This document shows, piece after piece, positions 8,372 to 28,243 of a stretch of 32,835 nucleotides of DNA. Source of the DNA: Candidatus Nealsonbacteria bacterium (GTDB lineage Bacteria; Patescibacteriota; Minisyncoccia; Minisyncoccales; MHMH01). Every line of letters begins with the position of its first letter. The stretch's first letter is position 1. The stretch covers positions 1 to 32,835 of the forward strand of contig JAUYKD010000038.1 of NCBI GenBank assembly GCA_030700195.1, written 5' to 3'. Under the pieces are notes generated by a model. It made no database searches, was not told the DNA's origin, and worked only from the letters and a program-made list of their open reading frames with translations. The translations under genes and the position numbers were made by a program.

Positions 8372-8442
8372 TCGGGCTGTGGGGGATCGAACCCCATTCA
8401 CAGGACCCCCAGCCCTGCATAATACCAATATACGACAGCCCG
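8372..8442 (-). tRNA. tRNA-Pro (anticodon GGG), CCA not encoded
   Basis: Hand-folded cloverleaf. Acceptor CGGGCTG/CAGCCCG. Anticodon stem CAGGG/TCCTG with loop CTGGGGG. T arm TGGGG-TTCGATC-CCCCA. Short 3-bp D stem with GG in the loop. 71 nt. Confidence 0.85.
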
Positions 8443-12908: not shown

Positions 12909-13036
12909 CCCCGTTAGAAGTCTTAGCCAGAAAAAATTATTTTAATTTTTTCTGCAAGGCATAACGAGGGTATAACTAAAAACAAAGGTTTATCTGAAAT
13001 TAGCTTTGTGATATATAAGACAGACTTCTAACGGGG
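12909..13036 (+). repeat. Family 1 stem-closed element, long form (copy A, 128 nt)
   Basis: CCCCGTTAGAAGTC...GACTTCTAACGGGG termini, flanked by TTGA/TTGA. The internal sequence is very similar to copies C and D. Confidence 0.8.
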
Positions 13037-13065
13037 TTGACAATTCTTTCCAAGTTTACTAAGAT
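13037..13065 (+). promoter_or_regulatory. Candidate tuf promoter abutting element A
   Basis: TTGACA (13037-13042; its first 4 nt are the direct repeat flanking the element), 17 nt spacer, TAAGAT (13060-13065). Confidence 0.4.
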
Positions 13066-14363: not shown

Positions 14364-14370
14364 TTTTAAT

Positions 14371-14476
14371 AGCGAGTCCGCCTGAGGCGGACGAAGCTTA
14401 AGATGAAATTTATTTCATCGCCCAGCGAGTCCCGCTTAGCGGGACGAAGCTGGAGATGAATCTTTAGATTCATCGA
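14371..14476 (-). repeat. Family 2 bipartite hairpin element, two units (inverted orientation)
   Basis: AGCGAGTCCGCCtgaGGCGGACGAAGC + GATGAAATttATTTCATCGCC, then AGCGAGTCCCGCttagCGGGACGAAGC + GATGAATCTttAGATTCATCGAC. Confidence 0.8.
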
Positions 14477-14482
14477 CTAAGA

Positions 14483-14996: not shown

Positions 14997-15608
14997 ATGG
15001 AAAAATTCATATTAGGTTTAAAATTAGGCATGAGTCAGATGTTTGATGAAAAGGGCAATGTTGTGCCTCTAACTTTAGTTGAAGCGGGTCCATGCCAAGT
15101 TACTCAAATGAAAACTAAAGAAAAAGATGGATACGAGGCTGTTCAAATTGGTTTTAAGCAAATTGAAAAAAAGATTAAGAAATCAATGAAGAAAAAACCG
15201 TTTCGTTACCTTAAAGAGTTCAAAATTGTCGAAGAGGATAAATCCTCTTCTTCACCTTTCGCTGCGGCTCAGGTATTAGACGTTTCTTTATTTAACGAAG
15301 GAGATAAGGTTAAGATTTCAGGTGTTTCTAAAGGAAAAGGATTCCAGGGACCGGTTAAAAGATGGGGGTTTTCAGGCAGAAACGCCACTCACGGAGTTAA
15401 ACATGAACATAGAACATTGGGGTCTGTGGGTACAACCGGCCCTCAAAGAGTTATGAAGGGGAAGAAAATGGCTGGTCGCATGGGTTCAGATAGAGTAACA
15501 GTTAAGAATTTAAAAGTGGTAAAAGTGGATAAAGAAAATAATTTATTAGCTATCGCAGGAGCCGTGCCCGGAAAAAACGGTTCATTATTAGAGATTAGGG
15601 GAAGATGA
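14997..15608 (+). CDS. rplC: 50S ribosomal protein L3
   Basis: MEKFILGLKLGMSQMFDEKGNVVPLTLVEAGPC matches the usual L3 N-terminus. The track start 14976 lies inside the upstream hairpin. Confidence 0.9.
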   Translation: MEKFILGLKLGMSQMFDEKGNVVPLTLVEAGPCQVTQMKTKEKDGYEAVQIGFKQIEKKIKKSMKKKPFRYLKEFKIVEEDKSSSSPFAAAQVLDVSLFNEGDKVKISGVSKGKGFQGPVKRWGFSGRNATHGVKHEHRTLGSVGTTGPQRVMKGKKMAGRMGSDRVTVKNLKVVKVDKENNLLAIAGAVPGKNGSLLEIRGR

Positions 15609-16783: not shown

Positions 16784-17606
16784 GAACCGAGATAATATGT
16801 TAAAGAACTTAGCGACAAAAGAAAACTTCAGATTATTAACCAAAAAGAAGCCGGAAAAAGGTTTGCTCTTAAAATTGCAGCAAAGATCAGGCAGAGGGTC
16901 CAGCGGGAGAATAACAGTTAGACATCAAGGCGGGGGAGCTAAAAAACTTTATCGTCTAGTGGATTTCGGACAGGAAAAATTGGATATCAAGGCAAAAGTT
17001 GCTTCTTTGGAATACGATCCTTACAGATCTTCCTTTATTATGCTTTTAGAATATCAAGGAGGAGATAAGCGCTATCGTTTAGCTCCTCAAGGATTAAAGG
17101 TTGGAGACAGCGTTGTTTGTCAGGAAAAAGCTGATTTAAATATAGGCAATAGAATGAAATTAAGACATATTCCGGTTGGAACTTCTGTTTACAATATTGA
17201 ACTTATTCCCGGTCAGGGCGGAAAATTAGCCAGGGGAGCCGGTACATCGGCCAAGGTTTTGGCGCATGAGGAAAAATACTGTAATATTGAGATGCCTTCG
17301 GGAGAAGTAAGAAGGACGTCTGAAGAGTGTTTTGCTTCTATCGGCGCTCTTTCCAGGGCAGAGCATATTTACACAGTATTGGGAAAAGCGGGTAAAGCGC
17401 GCCATAAAGGAATAAGGCCCAGCGTTAAAGGTTCAGCCATGATTCCTGCAGATCACCCGCATGGAGGAGGAGAAGGGAGAGCCCCAATCGGATTGAAATA
17501 TCCCAAGACCCCTTGGGGAAAACATGCTTTGGGAGTCAAAACAAGAAAAAGGCATCTGACGGATAAATATATAATTCAAAGAAGGTCAAAGAAATCAAAG
17601 AAATAA
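16782..17606 (+). CDS. rplB: 50S ribosomal protein L2
   Basis: GRITVRHQGGGAKKLYR, ...HPHGGGEGR. The start is either GTG 16782 (inside the element arm) or ATG 16797. Confidence 0.93.
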   Translation: MNRDNMLKNLATKENFRLLTKKKPEKGLLLKLQQRSGRGSSGRITVRHQGGGAKKLYRLVDFGQEKLDIKAKVASLEYDPYRSSFIMLLEYQGGDKRYRLAPQGLKVGDSVVCQEKADLNIGNRMKLRHIPVGTSVYNIELIPGQGGKLARGAGTSAKVLAHEEKYCNIEMPSGEVRRTSEECFASIGALSRAEHIYTVLGKAGKARHKGIRPSVKGSAMIPADHPHGGGEGRAPIGLKYPKTPWGKHALGVKTRKRHLTDKYIIQRRSKKSKK

Positions 17607-17645
17607 ATTTCTTTTCTACCTTCGTCCTGCTTCGCAGGACTCGGT
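17598..17645 (+). repeat. Family 2 bipartite hairpin element
   Basis: AAAGAAATaaATTTCTTTTCTACCTTCGTCCTGCttcGCAGGACTCGGT. The rplB stop TAA is in the first hairpin. It is followed by AAATAATTATG (rpsS start), identical to the rplW context. Confidence 0.75.
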
Positions 17646-17653
17646 AAATAATT

Positions 17654-17981: not shown

Positions 17982-18117
17982 CCCCGTTAGAAGTCTTAGA
18001 ATTTAAAATTTTGATGAGAAAATTTTTAAATTTGAATAAATAAAATATATCAACTATAAAAATCAACTATGTCCAATAATAATTATCATAGAACAGAAAA
18101 AGCAACTTCTAACGGGG
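17982..18117 (+). repeat. Family 1 stem-closed element, long form (copy B, 136 nt, divergent interior)
   Basis: CCCCGTTAGAAGTC...(A)ACTTCTAACGGGG, flanked by TGAA/TGAA. The interior is unrelated to copies A, C and D. Confidence 0.75.
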
Positions 18118-18506
18118 TGAAAAGCAAAGCCAAACTCAACTATTTAAGAATAGCTCCGAGAAAAGTAAGATTGGTGGCCGATATAATTCGCGGCAAATCT
18201 GTTTTTGACGCCAGGAATATTTTGGGCTTTACTATTAAGAAAGCGGCTCATCCCATGTTGAAGCTTTTGAATTCAGCCGTAGCTAATGCCGGGGATATGC
18301 CAGTAGAGAATCTTTTCATATCAAAAGTTGAGGTTAATGAAGGCCCGAAATTAAAAAGGTCCAGGCCCAGAGCTCGGGGCAGAGCATACGAGATACAGAA
18401 AAAGACAAGTCATATTATTATTGTTCTGGATGAAAAAATAACAAAATCTAAAAAACCCAGAAGAAAGGCAAAACCTTCCGCTGGTCTAAAAAAACATGAG
18501 TCATAA
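18117..18506 (+). CDS. rplV: 50S ribosomal protein L22
   Basis: GTG 18117 gives (M)KSKAKLNYLRIAPRKVRLVADIIRGK, the usual spacing to the RKVRLVAD motif. The track ATG 18069 is in-frame but inside element B. Lys-rich C-terminal tail overlaps rpsC. Confidence 0.85.
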   Translation: MKSKAKLNYLRIAPRKVRLVADIIRGKSVFDARNILGFTIKKAAHPMLKLLNSAVANAGDMPVENLFISKVEVNEGPKLKRSRPRARGRAYEIQKKTSHIIIVLDEKITKSKKPRRKAKPSAGLKKHES

Positions 18507-19545: not shown

Positions 19546-19677
19546 CCCCGTTAGAAGTCCTAGCCCGAAAAAATTTAGATTAAATTTTTTCTGCAAGGCA
19601 ATAACGAGGGAATAACCAATAATAAATGTTTGTCTGAAATTAGCTTTGTGCTATATTAAGATAGACTTCTAACGGGG
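19546..19677 (+). repeat. Family 1 stem-closed element, long form (copy C, 132 nt)
   Basis: CCCCGTTAGAAGTC...GACTTCTAACGGGG, flanked by TGAA/TGAA. The last G is the first base of the rpmC GTG. Confidence 0.8.
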
Positions 19678-19910
19678 TGAAGATACAAGACCTTCGCCAA
19701 AAAACAAAGCAAGAAATCGCAAAACTCCTGGTTGATAGCCGGGAACGTTTAAGATTATTAAGATTTGACCTGGCAGCCGGCAAAGTGAAAAATGTCAGGG
19801 AAATCAGACAGCTTAAAAAAGATATTGCCAGAATATTAACATTGCTAATTGAGCTCCGCGATAGCGGAGCGAAGATAAAGAAGAGAATAAAATTCTCTTC
19901 GCCTAAATAA
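19677..19910 (+). CDS. rpmC: 50S ribosomal protein L29, C-terminal about 18 aa encoded by a family 2 repeat
   Basis: (M)KIQDLRQKTKQEIAKLLVDSRERLRLLRFDLAAGKVKNVREIRQLKKDIARILT is L29. The tail LRDSGAKIKKRIKFSSPK is read from the hairpin element 19851-19903. Confidence 0.9.
   Translation: MKIQDLRQKTKQEIAKLLVDSRERLRLLRFDLAAGKVKNVREIRQLKKDIARILTLLIELRDSGAKIKKRIKFSSPK
19851..19903 (-). repeat. Family 2 bipartite hairpin element inside the rpmC 3' end (inverted orientation)
   Basis: GAGCTCCGCgataGCGGAGCGAAGATAAA-GAAGAGAATaaaATTCTCTTCGCC. Confidence 0.7.
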
Positions 19911-19914
19911 CATG

Positions 19915-20046
19915 CCCCGTTAGAAGTCTTAGCCAGAAAAAATTTGAATTAAATTTTTTCTGCAAGGCAATAACGAGGGTATAACCAATAATAAATATTT
20001 GTCTGAAATTAGTTTTATGCTATATTAAGACAAACTTCTAACGGGG
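19915..20046 (+). repeat. Family 1 stem-closed element, long form (copy D, 132 nt)
   Basis: CCCCGTTAGAAGTC...(A)ACTTCTAACGGGG, flanked by CATG/TATG. The rpsQ ATG starts 2 nt after the element. Confidence 0.8.
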
Positions 20047-20047
20047 T

Positions 20048-20311
20048 ATGCCAAAAAAGAAATTATCCGGAGTTATTACTTCGGTCAAAATGAAAAATAC
20101 AGCGGTTGTTAAGGTAGAGAGGCTCAAGCGGCATCCAAAATACCTTCGGACATATAAGATTCACAAAAAATACAAAGCTCATATTGAAGGAGCTGAATAT
20201 GCCGTGGGAGAAAAGGTTATTATTGAAGAGTGCGTGCCTGTGAGCAAAGATAAAAAGTGGAAAGTTATTAAAAAAGTCGATGACAAAATTTCGTTAGTCA
20301 ATGAAAAATAA
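20048..20311 (+). CDS. rpsQ: 30S ribosomal protein S17
   Basis: KLSGVITSVKMKNTAVVKVERLKRHPKY...EECVPVSKDKKWKV. Confidence 0.93.
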   Translation: MPKKKLSGVITSVKMKNTAVVKVERLKRHPKYLRTYKIHKKYKAHIEGAEYAVGEKVIIEECVPVSKDKKWKVIKKVDDKISLVNEK

Positions 20312-20409
20312 ATTTTTCATTTCCAACTTTACCCTCGTTAGTCAATGAAAAAGGGCGATGAGAACTTTGTTCTCATCTTCACCTTCGTTTTAATAAATTA
20401 AAACTCGGT
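20301..20409 (+). repeat. Family 2 bipartite hairpin elements (one degenerate and one full unit)
   Basis: ATGAAAAATaaATTTTTCATTTCCAACTTT...CTCGTTAGTC, then GGGCGATGAGAACtttGTTCTCATCTTCACCTTCGTTTTAATaaATTAAAACTCGGTC. The rpsQ stop lies in the first hairpin. Confidence 0.7.
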
Positions 20410-20411
20410 CA

Positions 20412-20783
20412 ATGATCCAAACAAGAACAATGTTAAAAGTAGCGGATAACAGCGGGGCAAAAATCCTTCAGTGTTTTCAGATATTGGGAGGCACCAGACA
20501 CAGATACGCAAAGTTGGGAGATATTATTGTCGGCACGGTTAAAAAGGCAGAGCCGAGAAAAGTTGTTAAAAAGCACGCGGTTGTCAGAGCGGTCATTGTC
20601 AGACAAAGAAAGGAATTAAGGCGGCCGGGAGGCACTTATATCAGGTTTGATGATAATGCCTGCGTTATTCTGGAAGAAAAGACAAAAGAGCCAAAGGGTG
20701 GAAGAATTTTCGGTCCAATTGCCAAAGAAGTCAAAGAAAAAGGATTTGATAAAATAGCCGCTATGGCCGAAGAATTAGTGTAG
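20412..20783 (+). CDS. rplN: 50S ribosomal protein L14
   Basis: MIQTRTMLKVADNSGAK...GDIIVGTVKKA.... Confidence 0.96.
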   Translation: MIQTRTMLKVADNSGAKILQCFQILGGTRHRYAKLGDIIVGTVKKAEPRKVVKKHAVVRAVIVRQRKELRRPGGTYIRFDDNACVILEEKTKEPKGGRIFGPIAKEVKEKGFDKIAAMAEELV

Positions 20784-20837
20784 GCGATGAGAATAGAATT
20801 CTCATCTTCAACTTCGTCCCGCTGCGCGGGACTCGTT
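20783..20837 (+). repeat. Family 2 bipartite hairpin element
   Basis: (TA)GGCGATGAGAATagAATTCTCATCTTCAACTTCGTCCCGCtgcGCGGGACTCGTT, followed by CAATG (rplX start). Confidence 0.8.
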
Positions 20838-20839
20838 CA

Positions 20840-21145
20840 ATGAAAATACATAAAGGCGACCAAGTATTAATAATTTCAGGAAAAGACCGAGGCAAAAAAG
20901 GTAAGGTTTTAGACGTGTTTCCGAAAATAAATAAACTGCTTGTTGAAGGGGTAAATATAAGGAAAAAGCACGTCAGACCCAAGAAGGGCGGAGAAAAAGG
21001 TCAGGTGGTGGAAATGCCAAGCCAAATTGCTTCTGCTAATGTTATGCTGCTTTGCTCGAAGTGCAATAAACCGACCAGAATAGGCAGCAAAATCGTTTCA
21101 AATAAAAAATATCGCATTTGTAAAAAATGTAAACAAGAAGTCTAG
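20840..21145 (+). CDS. rplX: 50S ribosomal protein L24 (KOW domain plus C-terminal Cys4 ribbon)
   Basis: MKIHKGDQVLIISGKDRGKKGKV...; CSKC...CKKC. Confidence 0.93.
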   Translation: MKIHKGDQVLIISGKDRGKKGKVLDVFPKINKLLVEGVNIRKKHVRPKKGGEKGQVVEMPSQIASANVMLLCSKCNKPTRIGSKIVSNKKYRICKKCKQEV

Positions 21146-27418: not shown

Positions 27419-28243
27419 CACAGACCCGACCTGTGTTAATCGACCTGTGTTAATCTGTATTAATTTATATTAATTTATGCCTTATAGAAAACAACCATTT
27501 GAAACCGGAAAAATTTACCATGTAGTTACAAGAAGTCTTGATAATAATTTGCTTTTTAAAAATACAAACGATTATTATAGAGGGATATTTTCTATTTATG
27601 AGTTTAATACTACAAAAGCAATTAAAATTAGAGAGCGCAGAAAAGCACGTGTAAAAGAAAAACAGATTATAAAAAACACAGACCCGACCTGTGTTACTAT
27701 AGATGCTATAGATAAGAGGGATTTATTAGTTGAAATTATTGCTTTTTGTTTGATGCCGAATCATATTCATTTATTATTGAGGCAAACCAAAAAAGATGGG
27801 ATAGTCAAATTTATGGCTAAGTTCGGATCGGGTTACGCTAGTTATTTTAATAAAAAATATGGACGAAAGGGATATGTTTTTCAAAATAGATTTCGTTCAG
27901 TAGAAATAAAGAATAACGAACAATTAAAAATAGTTTTTGCATATATCCACATTAATCCAACATCTATTATTATCTCAAATTGGAAAGAGGAAGGCATAAA
28001 GGATATAAATAAAGTGCTTGAATTTATAGAAAACTATAAATGGTCAAGCTATAGCGATTATCTCGGGAAAATTAATTTTCCTTCGGTAAGCAACAGAAAG
28101 TTTATTTTAGAATTATTCGGGAACAAAGAAAAATGTAAAAGATTTGTTGATGCTTGGGTACGATATAAGGCTAAAATTAAGATAGAAGAACTTTTTATAG
28201 AATAGAAATAGAAATACATAGAAATACACAGGTCGGGTCTGTG
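27419..28243 (+). mobile_element. IS200/RAYT-like unit: Y1 transposase gene bracketed by inverted 17-nt hairpin sequences
   Basis: Left CACAGACCCGACCTGTG (27419-27435). Right, its reverse complement CACAGGTCGGGTCTGTG (28227-28243). A third copy lies inside the CDS at 27677-27693. Confidence 0.7.
27477..28205 (+). CDS. HUH Y1 tyrosine transposase, IS200-like / REP-associated (RAYT-like)
   Basis: YHVVTRS..., HUH motif in CLMPNHIHLLL, YVFQNRF, catalytic-Tyr region FAYIHINP. Confidence 0.8.
   Translation: MPYRKQPFETGKIYHVVTRSLDNNLLFKNTNDYYRGIFSIYEFNTTKAIKIRERRKARVKEKQIIKNTDPTCVTIDAIDKRDLLVEIIAFCLMPNHIHLLLRQTKKDGIVKFMAKFGSGYASYFNKKYGRKGYVFQNRFRSVEIKNNEQLKIVFAYIHINPTSIIISNWKEEGIKDINKVLEFIENYKWSSYSDYLGKINFPSVSNRKFILELFGNKEKCKRFVDAWVRYKAKIKIEELFIE

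Follow-up and report, generated by a model that had tools for sequence, protein, structure and literature searches.

An in-frame two-hairpin repeat at the end of the uL29 gene in a Patescibacteria genome

The window analyzed here, a stretch of 32,835 nucleotides that constitutes contig C38 (GenBank JAUYKD010000038.1) of a Candidatus Nealsonbacteria genome (G000; 563,753 bases in 58 contigs, estimated to be 93% complete), carries the S10-spc ribosomal operon on its + strand and, within that operon, the gene rpmC for ribosomal protein uL29 (L29). Comparison with related alleles indicates that a 57-nt copy of a two-hairpin repeat, termed family 2, sits in rpmC as a seamless in-frame insertion, preceded by codon 57 and followed by the native last codon and stop, and that the C-terminus of the predicted L29 is encoded by this copy. 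An earlier reading made from the letters of the window alone (hereafter the sequence-only reading) had assigned positions 19851-19903 to such a repeat, and this stretch is confirmed to be present and to belong to a real repeat family. In the explanation that we consider best overall, at a probability of roughly 0.85, a short selfish repeat was inserted in frame near the end of rpmC, the tail that it adds to L29 is a by-product, and the site is a hotspot for the element.

The rpmC gene and its inserted element

Pfam matches in the window support EF-Tu, L3, L2, S19, L22, L16, L29, S17, L14 and L24, and back the gene order L16-L29-S17-L14. As defined by its open reading frame (ORF), its Pfam match and its relatives, rpmC (19677..19910, + strand) encodes 77 residues from a GTG start, which agrees with the position of the Met in the L29 of 29 relatives, to a TAA stop at 19908-19910, and its product is a member of the uL29 family (PF00831, residues 4-57, E 5.7e-14, 52.3 bits against a cut-off of 24.5). 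Pfam, chains in the Protein Data Bank (PDB) and relatives together delimit a native core of codons 1-57 (19677..19847), which ends ...ILTLL with codon 57 at 19845-19847; the ‘IE’ that had earlier been counted with the core derives from the outer helix and the conserved GA of the element. The insert (19848..19904, + strand), delimited by empty and filled alleles and lying within a covariance-model match at 19843-19905, comprises 19 codons for the residues IELRDSGAKIKKRIKFSSP. It is followed by AAA (K) and TAA (19905..19910, + strand), which are probably the native last codon and stop, the same AAA TAA being present in two empty loci (L070/L074) and one filled locus (L053) of relatives. The frame is open across the entire element to the TAA, and the copy scores 69.5 bits in the covariance-model search of the genome (E 1.7e-16, rank 12), in agreement with the earlier claim that the end of L29 is translated from a repeat element.

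Both hairpins of the element lie on the + strand. Hairpin 1 (19848..19876), as defined by structure alignment and folding, consists of an outer helix ATT/GAT (19848-50 paired with 19874-76), a conserved GA (19851-52) that faces GAA (19871-73), and an inner helix GCTCCGC/GCGGAGC (19853-59 with 19864-70) closed by the loop GATA (19860-63). Beyond a short linker, hairpin 2 (19880..19900) is predicted by folding to pair GAAGAGAAT (19880-88) with ATTCTCTTC (19892-19900) across the loop AAA (19889-91), and GCCT (19901-04) completes the element.

The tail that results is 19 residues long and basic, with a net charge of +5. L29 is present in all genomes of the order-level comparison set (41/41), and its gene was taken from 30 GTDB loci of the order, namely G000 and 29 relatives. 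In this set, L29 has 77 residues in G000 and 76 in the relative G006, while the other 28 proteins have 58-68, end 1-11 residues past ...ILTLL and show no similar tail, as would be expected had the tail come from a mobile or structured repeat in the way that the sequence-only reading proposed. Within the GTDB-rank family the tail occurs in only two of 19 genomes, G000 and G006; their L29 proteins are 68% identical. The element of G006 matches that of G000 in codon position, orientation and frame and likewise has a 4-nt loop; both of its helices differ from those of G000 by compensatory changes. A protein search with residues 38-77 returned eight other tail-bearing L29 proteins, of 77-85 residues, among 229 candidates. 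The uL29 chains of the PDB (59 distinct sequences) align to the query from residue 1 to residues 59-69 and never to the end of the tail, and natural bacterial uL29 chains in that collection reach 111 residues. AlphaFold2, supplied with a 13-row alignment, yields mean confidence (pLDDT) per block of 83-94 for residues 1-60, falling to 58 and then 49 in the tail, and in this model the tail looks like an appendage. uL29 is located at the exit-tunnel rim of the ribosome; the tail is presumably made and tolerated there, and is best read as a tolerated passenger.

Occupation, turnover and covariation at the rpmC end

Sampling of the site was extended with a scan of metagenome contigs, which gave 596 matching stretches, 533 of them from relatives, and with a second GTDB set of 80 species loci. 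Whether a site is filled or empty was assigned with a covariance model of the repeat (R1), built from 22 aligned copies, of which the window supplied 12, other contigs nine and G006 one, and not by the length of L29. Among the best 80 of the 533 metagenome loci, 13 match the query through the tail and 17 are filled, as are three of the 80 GTDB species loci, in addition to G000 and G006. The same nucleotide position is filled in 22 other loci, or in 21 if the GTDB locus L136 is the G006 genome, as it may be. The element begins directly after codon 57 in all 14 filled loci that were printed (13 relatives and G000), and the model puts its + strand match at this offset in each filled locus, with no exception in orientation.

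The boundaries of the insertion are set by close relatives with and without it. In the empty loci L070/L074 the sequence ...TTG AAA TAA leads into the start of S17, which is also the start reached in the filled locus L053, there after ...TTT, two elements (108 nt) and AAA TAA; these loci share one clade with 100% support in the Shimodaira-Hasegawa-like approximate likelihood ratio test (SH-aLRT). The arrangement in G000 is ...CTA, element, AAA TAA. Because empty and filled alleles of close relatives differ in this way, the element appears to have been inserted ahead of the native last codon or codons and stop, and the earlier claim that it had replaced the native stop does not hold. The frame past the element in L046, L049, L054 and L055 ends, after K-Q-P/S, at a TGA that belongs to an ATGA shared with the S17 start. 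Such an overlap is the usual native junction, and L088, an empty relative, has K-Q-T before its stop. The comparison of empty and filled alleles shows no target duplication at the rpmC insert.

What occupies the site is far from uniform. The units found there measure 56, 59, 62, 65 or 80 nt and have a long, short or extended hairpin 1. Locus L054 carries three tandem in-frame copies that lengthen L29 to 114 residues (the array of L052 runs off the end of its contig), in L053 a full copy is joined by a short variant (92 residues), and in L111 hairpin 2 holds a nested insertion (93 residues); in three further loci the frame stops inside the element, giving proteins of 60 (L078) or 66 residues (L073, L106). 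On a tree of L16, the L29 core and S17 (110 rows, of which 30 are GTDB and 80 metagenome loci; 268 columns; LG+G4, quick search), the 19 filled rows require at least 10 changes, and a single clade of all filled loci is rejected (log-likelihood difference 354; approximately unbiased (AU) test, p-AU 3.6e-67). The filled loci are thus scattered over the tree, and therefore the site appears to have been gained and lost repeatedly. Near-identical pairs differ in their state, as do L120 (62 residues) and L052/L054, L060/L062 and L049, or L070/L074 and both L053 and L106/L073; the first copies of L053 and of L106/L073, which belong to one tight clade, differ from each other in hairpin 1.

Other repeats also reach the end of L29 in these data sets. 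Locus L086 has a 117-residue L29 read through several GC-rich hairpins of another repeat, L125, L107 and L064 have tails from reiterated (T)ACGAAT or GCGAAT, and L066 has CTGAAAC repeats. In this group, small repeats of various kinds seem prone to settle at the C-terminus of L29.

At the level of nucleic acid, the element is conserved as a structure. In the alignment of 22 paralogs the consensus has 18 pairs, 11 of which show compensatory changes. The 10 distinct copies at the orthologous site all fold to the same two hairpins, with minimum free energies of -22 to -42 kcal/mol. When these copies were aligned with MAFFT and assessed against a fixed structure, 91.4% of cells were paired, as compared with 81.4 +/- 1.4 in shuffles and 38-49% in a control in which the partners were slid, the figures being lowered by one row (L056) that is out of register in hairpin 2; changes on both sides were seen for 10 of 19 pairs, and none of 500 shuffles reached as high. 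The peptide follows along. Replacement of the outer-helix pair ATT/GAT by ACC/GGT changes residues I/T and I/V, and in hairpin 2 a synonymous change from AGA to AGG is matched by one from TTC to TCC that turns F into S. Likewise, the hairpin-1 peptide varies freely (LRDSG, SRQGG, LPFME, LPKE, PRPSLSFRKGG). Since the compensatory changes alter the peptide, the constraint would lie on the nucleic-acid structure and not on the tail, although the covariation could also reflect the replacement of one copy by another and not selection in place.

The family across the genome and the weighing of explanations

Family 2 is a unit of about 54-62 nt with two hairpins, the first built from an outer helix, the conserved GA/GAA internal loop and a GC-rich inner helix, the second richer in AT and followed by CGCC. 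A search of the genome with R1 gave 121 matches at E<=0.1, of which 100 lie below 1e-4; 18 of the 121 are in the window, which amounts to 5.8% of the genome. At about 100 copies of about 60 nt, a single hairpin family makes up about 1% of a 564-kb genome, even though the Patescibacteria, or Candidate Phyla Radiation (CPR), serve as models of genome streamlining. Placed on crude gene calls (596 ORFs, 89% coding, a few of them spurious, such as an ORF made of tandem elements on contig C44), the 100 best matches comprise 61 that are intergenic, 12 that lie across the 3' end of a gene, five within 20 codons of a stop, 11 inside ORFs and 11 near a 5' end, the last probably upstream of the true start. 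At the gathering threshold Rfam holds no family for the repeat, its sole match in the window being a tRNA at 8372-8442. With filters stricter than those behind the 121 matches, the family is found in seven of the 41 genomes of the order (95 matches in G000, 78 in G036, 43 in G006, 29 in G005, 13 in G024, five in G025 and one in G004), and two of these carriers, G005 and G036, have the family elsewhere and an empty rpmC site. The L29 copy of G000 is as similar to its paralogs (81%) as to its orthologs (81%).

A repeat search of the window found many related copies in both orientations. According to the covariance model, the best-scoring copy (20781..20842, - strand; 77.8 bits) fills the gap between L14 and L24 exactly, another (20352..20414, - strand) lies in the gap between S17 and L14, a weaker one (20295-20344) overlaps the 3' end of S17, one (17592..17650, - strand) runs across the last codons and the stop of L2, and two in tandem (14366..14479, + strand) lie between tuf and S10.

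In-frame copies are mainly of the short, 54-nt variant (18 codons). One of these, identified by the covariance model and by translation, lies in frame in L3, antisense to the gene (15226..15279, - strand). Both in-frame copies of TopA fall inside its Topoisom_bac domain (127-569), and both are missing in five of five family relatives, where the gaps measure 10-15 and 16 residues. Further in-frame copies are found after the AMP-binding_C domain of acetyl-CoA synthetase and after the N-terminal domains of RpoA (both by Pfam), near the C-terminus of a TatD-like protein and in two Mur-ligase-like proteins (named from their translations), and in proteins of 390 residues (two in tandem), 436 residues (with no Pfam match) and 1206 residues. 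The encoded peptides recur by frame and orientation from protein to protein, the pattern expected if they are dictated by the repeat. Two side observations concern these genes. TopA of G005 (locus L134) has a 17-residue insertion of its own at another place, which is missing in the five other genomes compared and may come from another repeat family. RpoA of G000 (contig C57, 8553-9428; 291 residues) matches Pfam in its N-terminal and insert domains only (residues 29-221); the family-2 copy sits in a lysine-rich tail, and Pfam detects no alpha-CTD.

How far could the tail be explained otherwise? An assembly or frame artefact, with the true L29 stop near residue 58-60, was named in the sequence-only reading as something that would undo it, and repeats are indeed error-prone in metagenome assemblies, with Logan contigs breaking at the adjacent 133-nt repeats; but a Logan contig of the public run X1, possibly the window's source sample, covers 19632-19944 with no differing letter and no gap, and the same read-through is present in G006, in many independently assembled metagenome contigs and in the eight other tail-bearing database proteins, which makes such an error exceedingly improbable. 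A single ancient insertion into rpmC, inherited vertically and later lost in places, with no ongoing mobility or site preference, would fit the identical position, orientation and frame of every filled locus, the post-element junction shared by several filled clades, and the joint occurrence of the element and its 4-nt loop in G000 and G006. It would have to accommodate the rejection of a single filled clade and the minimum number of changes on the tree, a tight clade that holds empty alleles together with two different filled ones, losses that must each be nucleotide-exact, and tandem and nested copies that indicate recent activity; we consider it improbable. We hold an equally low opinion of the view that L29 has been extended adaptively at the protein level, by a tail that might bind rRNA or modify the exit site, with the repeat-like DNA secondary. 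The basic character of the tail, the similarity of its second half (AKVKKRxKFSSPK) in most carriers, and the unrelated repeat-derived L29 tails of other lineages speak for this view, and so do the 11 of 13 distinct variants that are open in frame and the length classes at the site, whose differences are all multiples of 3. The value of these length classes as proof of translation is weakened by the variants of L073, L106 and L078 that stop inside the element; that such variants persist also counts against an adaptive tail, as do the residues altered by compensatory stem changes, the lack of conservation of the hairpin-1 peptide, closest relatives with no tail at all, the low AlphaFold2 confidence, and a tail sequence that is the translation of the family consensus as found in non-coding paralogs.

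A rival of another kind holds that the element is mainly an RNA signal useful to the host at junctions of highly expressed operons, either as a hairpin for mRNA processing or stability or as a modulator of translational coupling to S17, and that its overlap with rpmC is incidental. The concentration of matches in the window with its S10-spc operon, the copies lying exactly in gaps between ribosomal protein genes and recurring at L16/L29 and S17/L14 junctions in other lineages, and the conserved unpaired GA/GAA flanked by covarying helices are all consistent with this proposal, and the portion of Di Nocera et al. (2013; PMC3733652) drawn on here argues likewise for repetitive extragenic palindromic sequences (REPs) located 3' of ORFs. 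Yet copies occur in both orientations within one co-directional operon and inside protein domains such as that of TopA, the family was found in only a minority of the 41 genomes of the order and has no counterpart in Rfam, and near-identical relatives differ at the same site in presence, copy number and variant. As the main role of the element we regard an RNA signal as unlikely; as a secondary, exapted role, it is compatible with mobile DNA.

Returning to insertion by a selfish repeat, we envisage that a unit of about 54-62 nt would slot into rpmC after codon 57 and ahead of the last codon, leaving no seam and keeping the frame, that the ribosome would read through it, and that L29 would gain its 19 residues as a by-product of the element's sequence. 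Copies would settle where they are tolerated, that is, in gaps between genes (above all in the ribosomal protein operon), at protein termini and in surface loops, and the end of rpmC would be a hotspot, where close relatives have time and again gained, multiplied and lost the element. We infer that family 2 is mobile DNA from its structure, patchiness, polymorphism, tandem amplification and seamless presence or absence. Movement would take place by transposition or excision at the DNA level, possibly of the single-strand kind mediated by Y1 transposases of the IS200/IS605 insertion sequences or of the REP-associated tyrosine transposases (REP-RAYT); this mode of transposition features terminal hairpins, no target duplication and exact empty sites. 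The seamless pair of alleles and the two terminal hairpins recall this mode; no fixed target motif emerged from the flanks at filled rpmC sites (TTACTT, TTATTA, TTATGC, TTGCTA, CTGATC). A candidate mobilizer is encoded in the window by an IS200-like Y1 transposase gene identified by Pfam (27477..28205, + strand; 242 residues), one of five Y1_Tnp (PF01797) matches in G000. Across the order, genomes of 0.4-0.9 Mb hold up to 15 such matches, many for their size. As a bolder and quite tentative proposal, to which we give less than even odds, family 2 would be an active mini-transposon that inserts and excises seamlessly and targets the exact nucleotide at the rpmC end among other sites, and it may be mobilized by the numerous Y1 transposases of about 240 residues in these genomes.

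A number of observations weigh against insertion by a mobile repeat, or at least against this version of it. No transposase is tied to family 2, and the inverted repeats of 43 nt on either side of the window's Y1 gene (27419-27461 and 28201-28243) are related neither to family 2 nor to the second repeat family of the window, family 1. Y1_Tnp is found in 25 of the 41 genomes with no correlation to the element (four of seven carriers, 21 of 34 non-carriers), and G036 has 78 copies of the element and no Y1 gene; therefore, a Y1 mobilizer is put forward only as a hypothesis. The read-through frame, kept in 11 of 13 distinct variants, hints at selection on translation or on downstream coupling to S17. 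The post-element junction AAACAA(C/T)CATGA recurs in several filled alleles of separate clades; spread by homologous recombination, or descent from a common ancestor followed by losses, would account for this no less well than repeated insertion would. The tree, for its part, has 268 columns from three short proteins, and recombination could have distorted it. Finally, the element segment of L3 occupies a variable loop and lengthens the protein by only 3 to 8 residues relative to relatives (G001 and G036 excluded), so that the event is replacement-like there and not a clean insert of 18 residues.

A second repeat family beside rpmC

Family 1, whose 24 full-length copies are distributed genome-wide, flanks rpmC on both sides. 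One 133-nt copy (19546..19678, + strand) lies between L16 and L29 with a TGAA duplication at its flanks, and a second, also of 133 nt (19915..20047, + strand), lies between the stop of L29 and the start of S17; the window also holds a copy at 12909-13037 and a partial one at 17982-18118. A low-depth Logan contig of run X1 joins 19842 directly to 20087 and omits the L29 insert, the 133-nt element and the start of S17; the shorter side of this joint is 22 letters, below the reliability threshold, and a repeat-mediated mis-join or another strain is possible. The ends of family 1 are inverted repeats of 14 bp (CCCCGTTAGAAGTC...GACTTCTAACGGGG), and a promoter-like TTGTCT-N16-TGcTATATT points outward. 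In 21 of its 24 full copies the left flank ends ATGAA, ATGGA or ATGG and the right begins TGAA or TGGA, a 4-bp duplication; these copies are inserted at start codons, and the last G of the element together with the duplicated TG forms a new GTG start downstream, as for L29 at 19677, for TopA on contig C51 and probably for L22 near 18117. Before the insertion, L16 and L29 were joined by an ATGA stop/start overlap, and the left-over ATG now opens a short frame that reads into the element. In L22 (18069-18506), the longest frame begins at ATG 18069, the Pfam match begins at residue 21 and the partial family-1 copy ends at 18118. Translation of L22 probably begins at the GTG that closes this copy, near 18117. 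From these features, family 1 looks like a start-codon-targeting, promoter-carrying miniature inverted-repeat transposable element (MITE).

Significance and comparison with known systems

The alleles at the rpmC end, which range from empty through single, double and triple to nested and stop-truncated, offer a test of how much appended sequence is tolerated on a ribosomal protein, and they bear as well on scar-free movement and on selection on RNA or DNA as opposed to copy turnover. If an active mini-transposon were at work, populations would carry L29 isoforms of 58-114 residues and element-decorated TopA, L3 and RpoA, and selfish DNA would be a continuing source of heterogeneity of ribosomal and housekeeping proteins in the most streamlined bacterial genomes known. 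Automated annotation will meanwhile show odd lengths of L29, L3 and TopA, and ‘novel’ motifs that are repeat-derived.

The nearest analogs are repeats that are likewise read as protein. Segments encoded by Rickettsia palindromic elements (RPEs) are located at protein surfaces. A counterpart in a ribosomal protein gene is provided by VAR1 of yeast mitochondria, in which optional GC clusters, mobile and palindromic, are present or absent in frame; these differ from family 2 in their organelle genome, their GC-only composition and their unrelated sequences. The likeness of family 2 to IS200/IS605 elements resides in its hairpins at both ends, its seamless filled and empty alleles and the several Y1 genes in the genome; in contrast to those elements, no cognate transposase with matching ends was found for family 2, and Y1 genes do not co-occur with it. 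Nor could family 2 be assigned to a REP-RAYT association, given the unrelated flanks of the window's Y1 gene, the one of the five whose flanks were compared, and the absence of co-occurrence in the 41 genomes.

As described in the part of Di Nocera et al. (2013; PMC3733652) drawn on here, REPs of the GTAG/CGTC kind are units of 20-40 bp, each a single palindrome with a stem of 8-9 bp and an unpaired tag at one end, that lie mostly downstream of ORFs in co-directional operons, form dimers or clusters and are patchy among species; some lie inside genes and encode 20-30 residues, about 10% are at the ends of coding regions, and a link to Y1 transposases is unclear for some families. Family 2 shares with REPs, so described, the intragenic copies, the clustering, the patchy distribution and the unclear Y1 link. 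It differs from them as a composite of two different hairpins, not a single 20-40-bp palindrome, and in its CPR host, a group that does not appear in the phylum list of that part of the paper. Membership among these REPs was rejected: the consensus has no GTAG, and although many copies show CGTC on the reverse strand, the inner helix pairs three of these bases, and in the L29 copy the tetranucleotide is CGCT.

RPEs measure about 150 bp, and the portion consulted of a 2024 review of MITEs calls them unusually frequent in Rickettsia and possibly present elsewhere (PMC10969869). With RPEs, as far as these partial sources portray them, family 2 has in common that a short palindromic family is spread over a small genome, in intergenic positions and in frame in unrelated housekeeping proteins to which it adds a peptide. 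The analogy with RPEs drawn in the sequence-only reading is borne out in this respect by L29, TopA, L3, acetyl-CoA synthetase, RpoA and others. In other respects the two diverge: family 2 resides in Patescibacteria and not in Alphaproteobacteria such as Rickettsia, its units of 54-62 nt fall short of the RPE size given in that review, and by description its two hairpins with a GA/GAA internal loop set it apart. The CGTC reported for RPE-4 and RPE-6 in the consulted part of PMC3733652 is not present as an unpaired tag in family 2, whose site at the rpmC end also stands out for its different variants, tandem arrays and polymorphism among near-identical relatives. By size, host and tag, family 2 falls outside RPEs and REPs as described, and it works like them without, it seems, being a member of either. 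A literature search found no paper that joins CPR or Patescibacteria with protein-translated RPE, REP or MITE elements (subscription journals and supplements lay outside the search). RPEs and intragenic REPs are already established, and the new part is the extension to a distant phylum: on the sequence comparisons presented here, family 2 is an RPE-like phenomenon in a lineage of Patescibacteria, and a universal ribosomal protein contains a hotspot that it has filled repeatedly.

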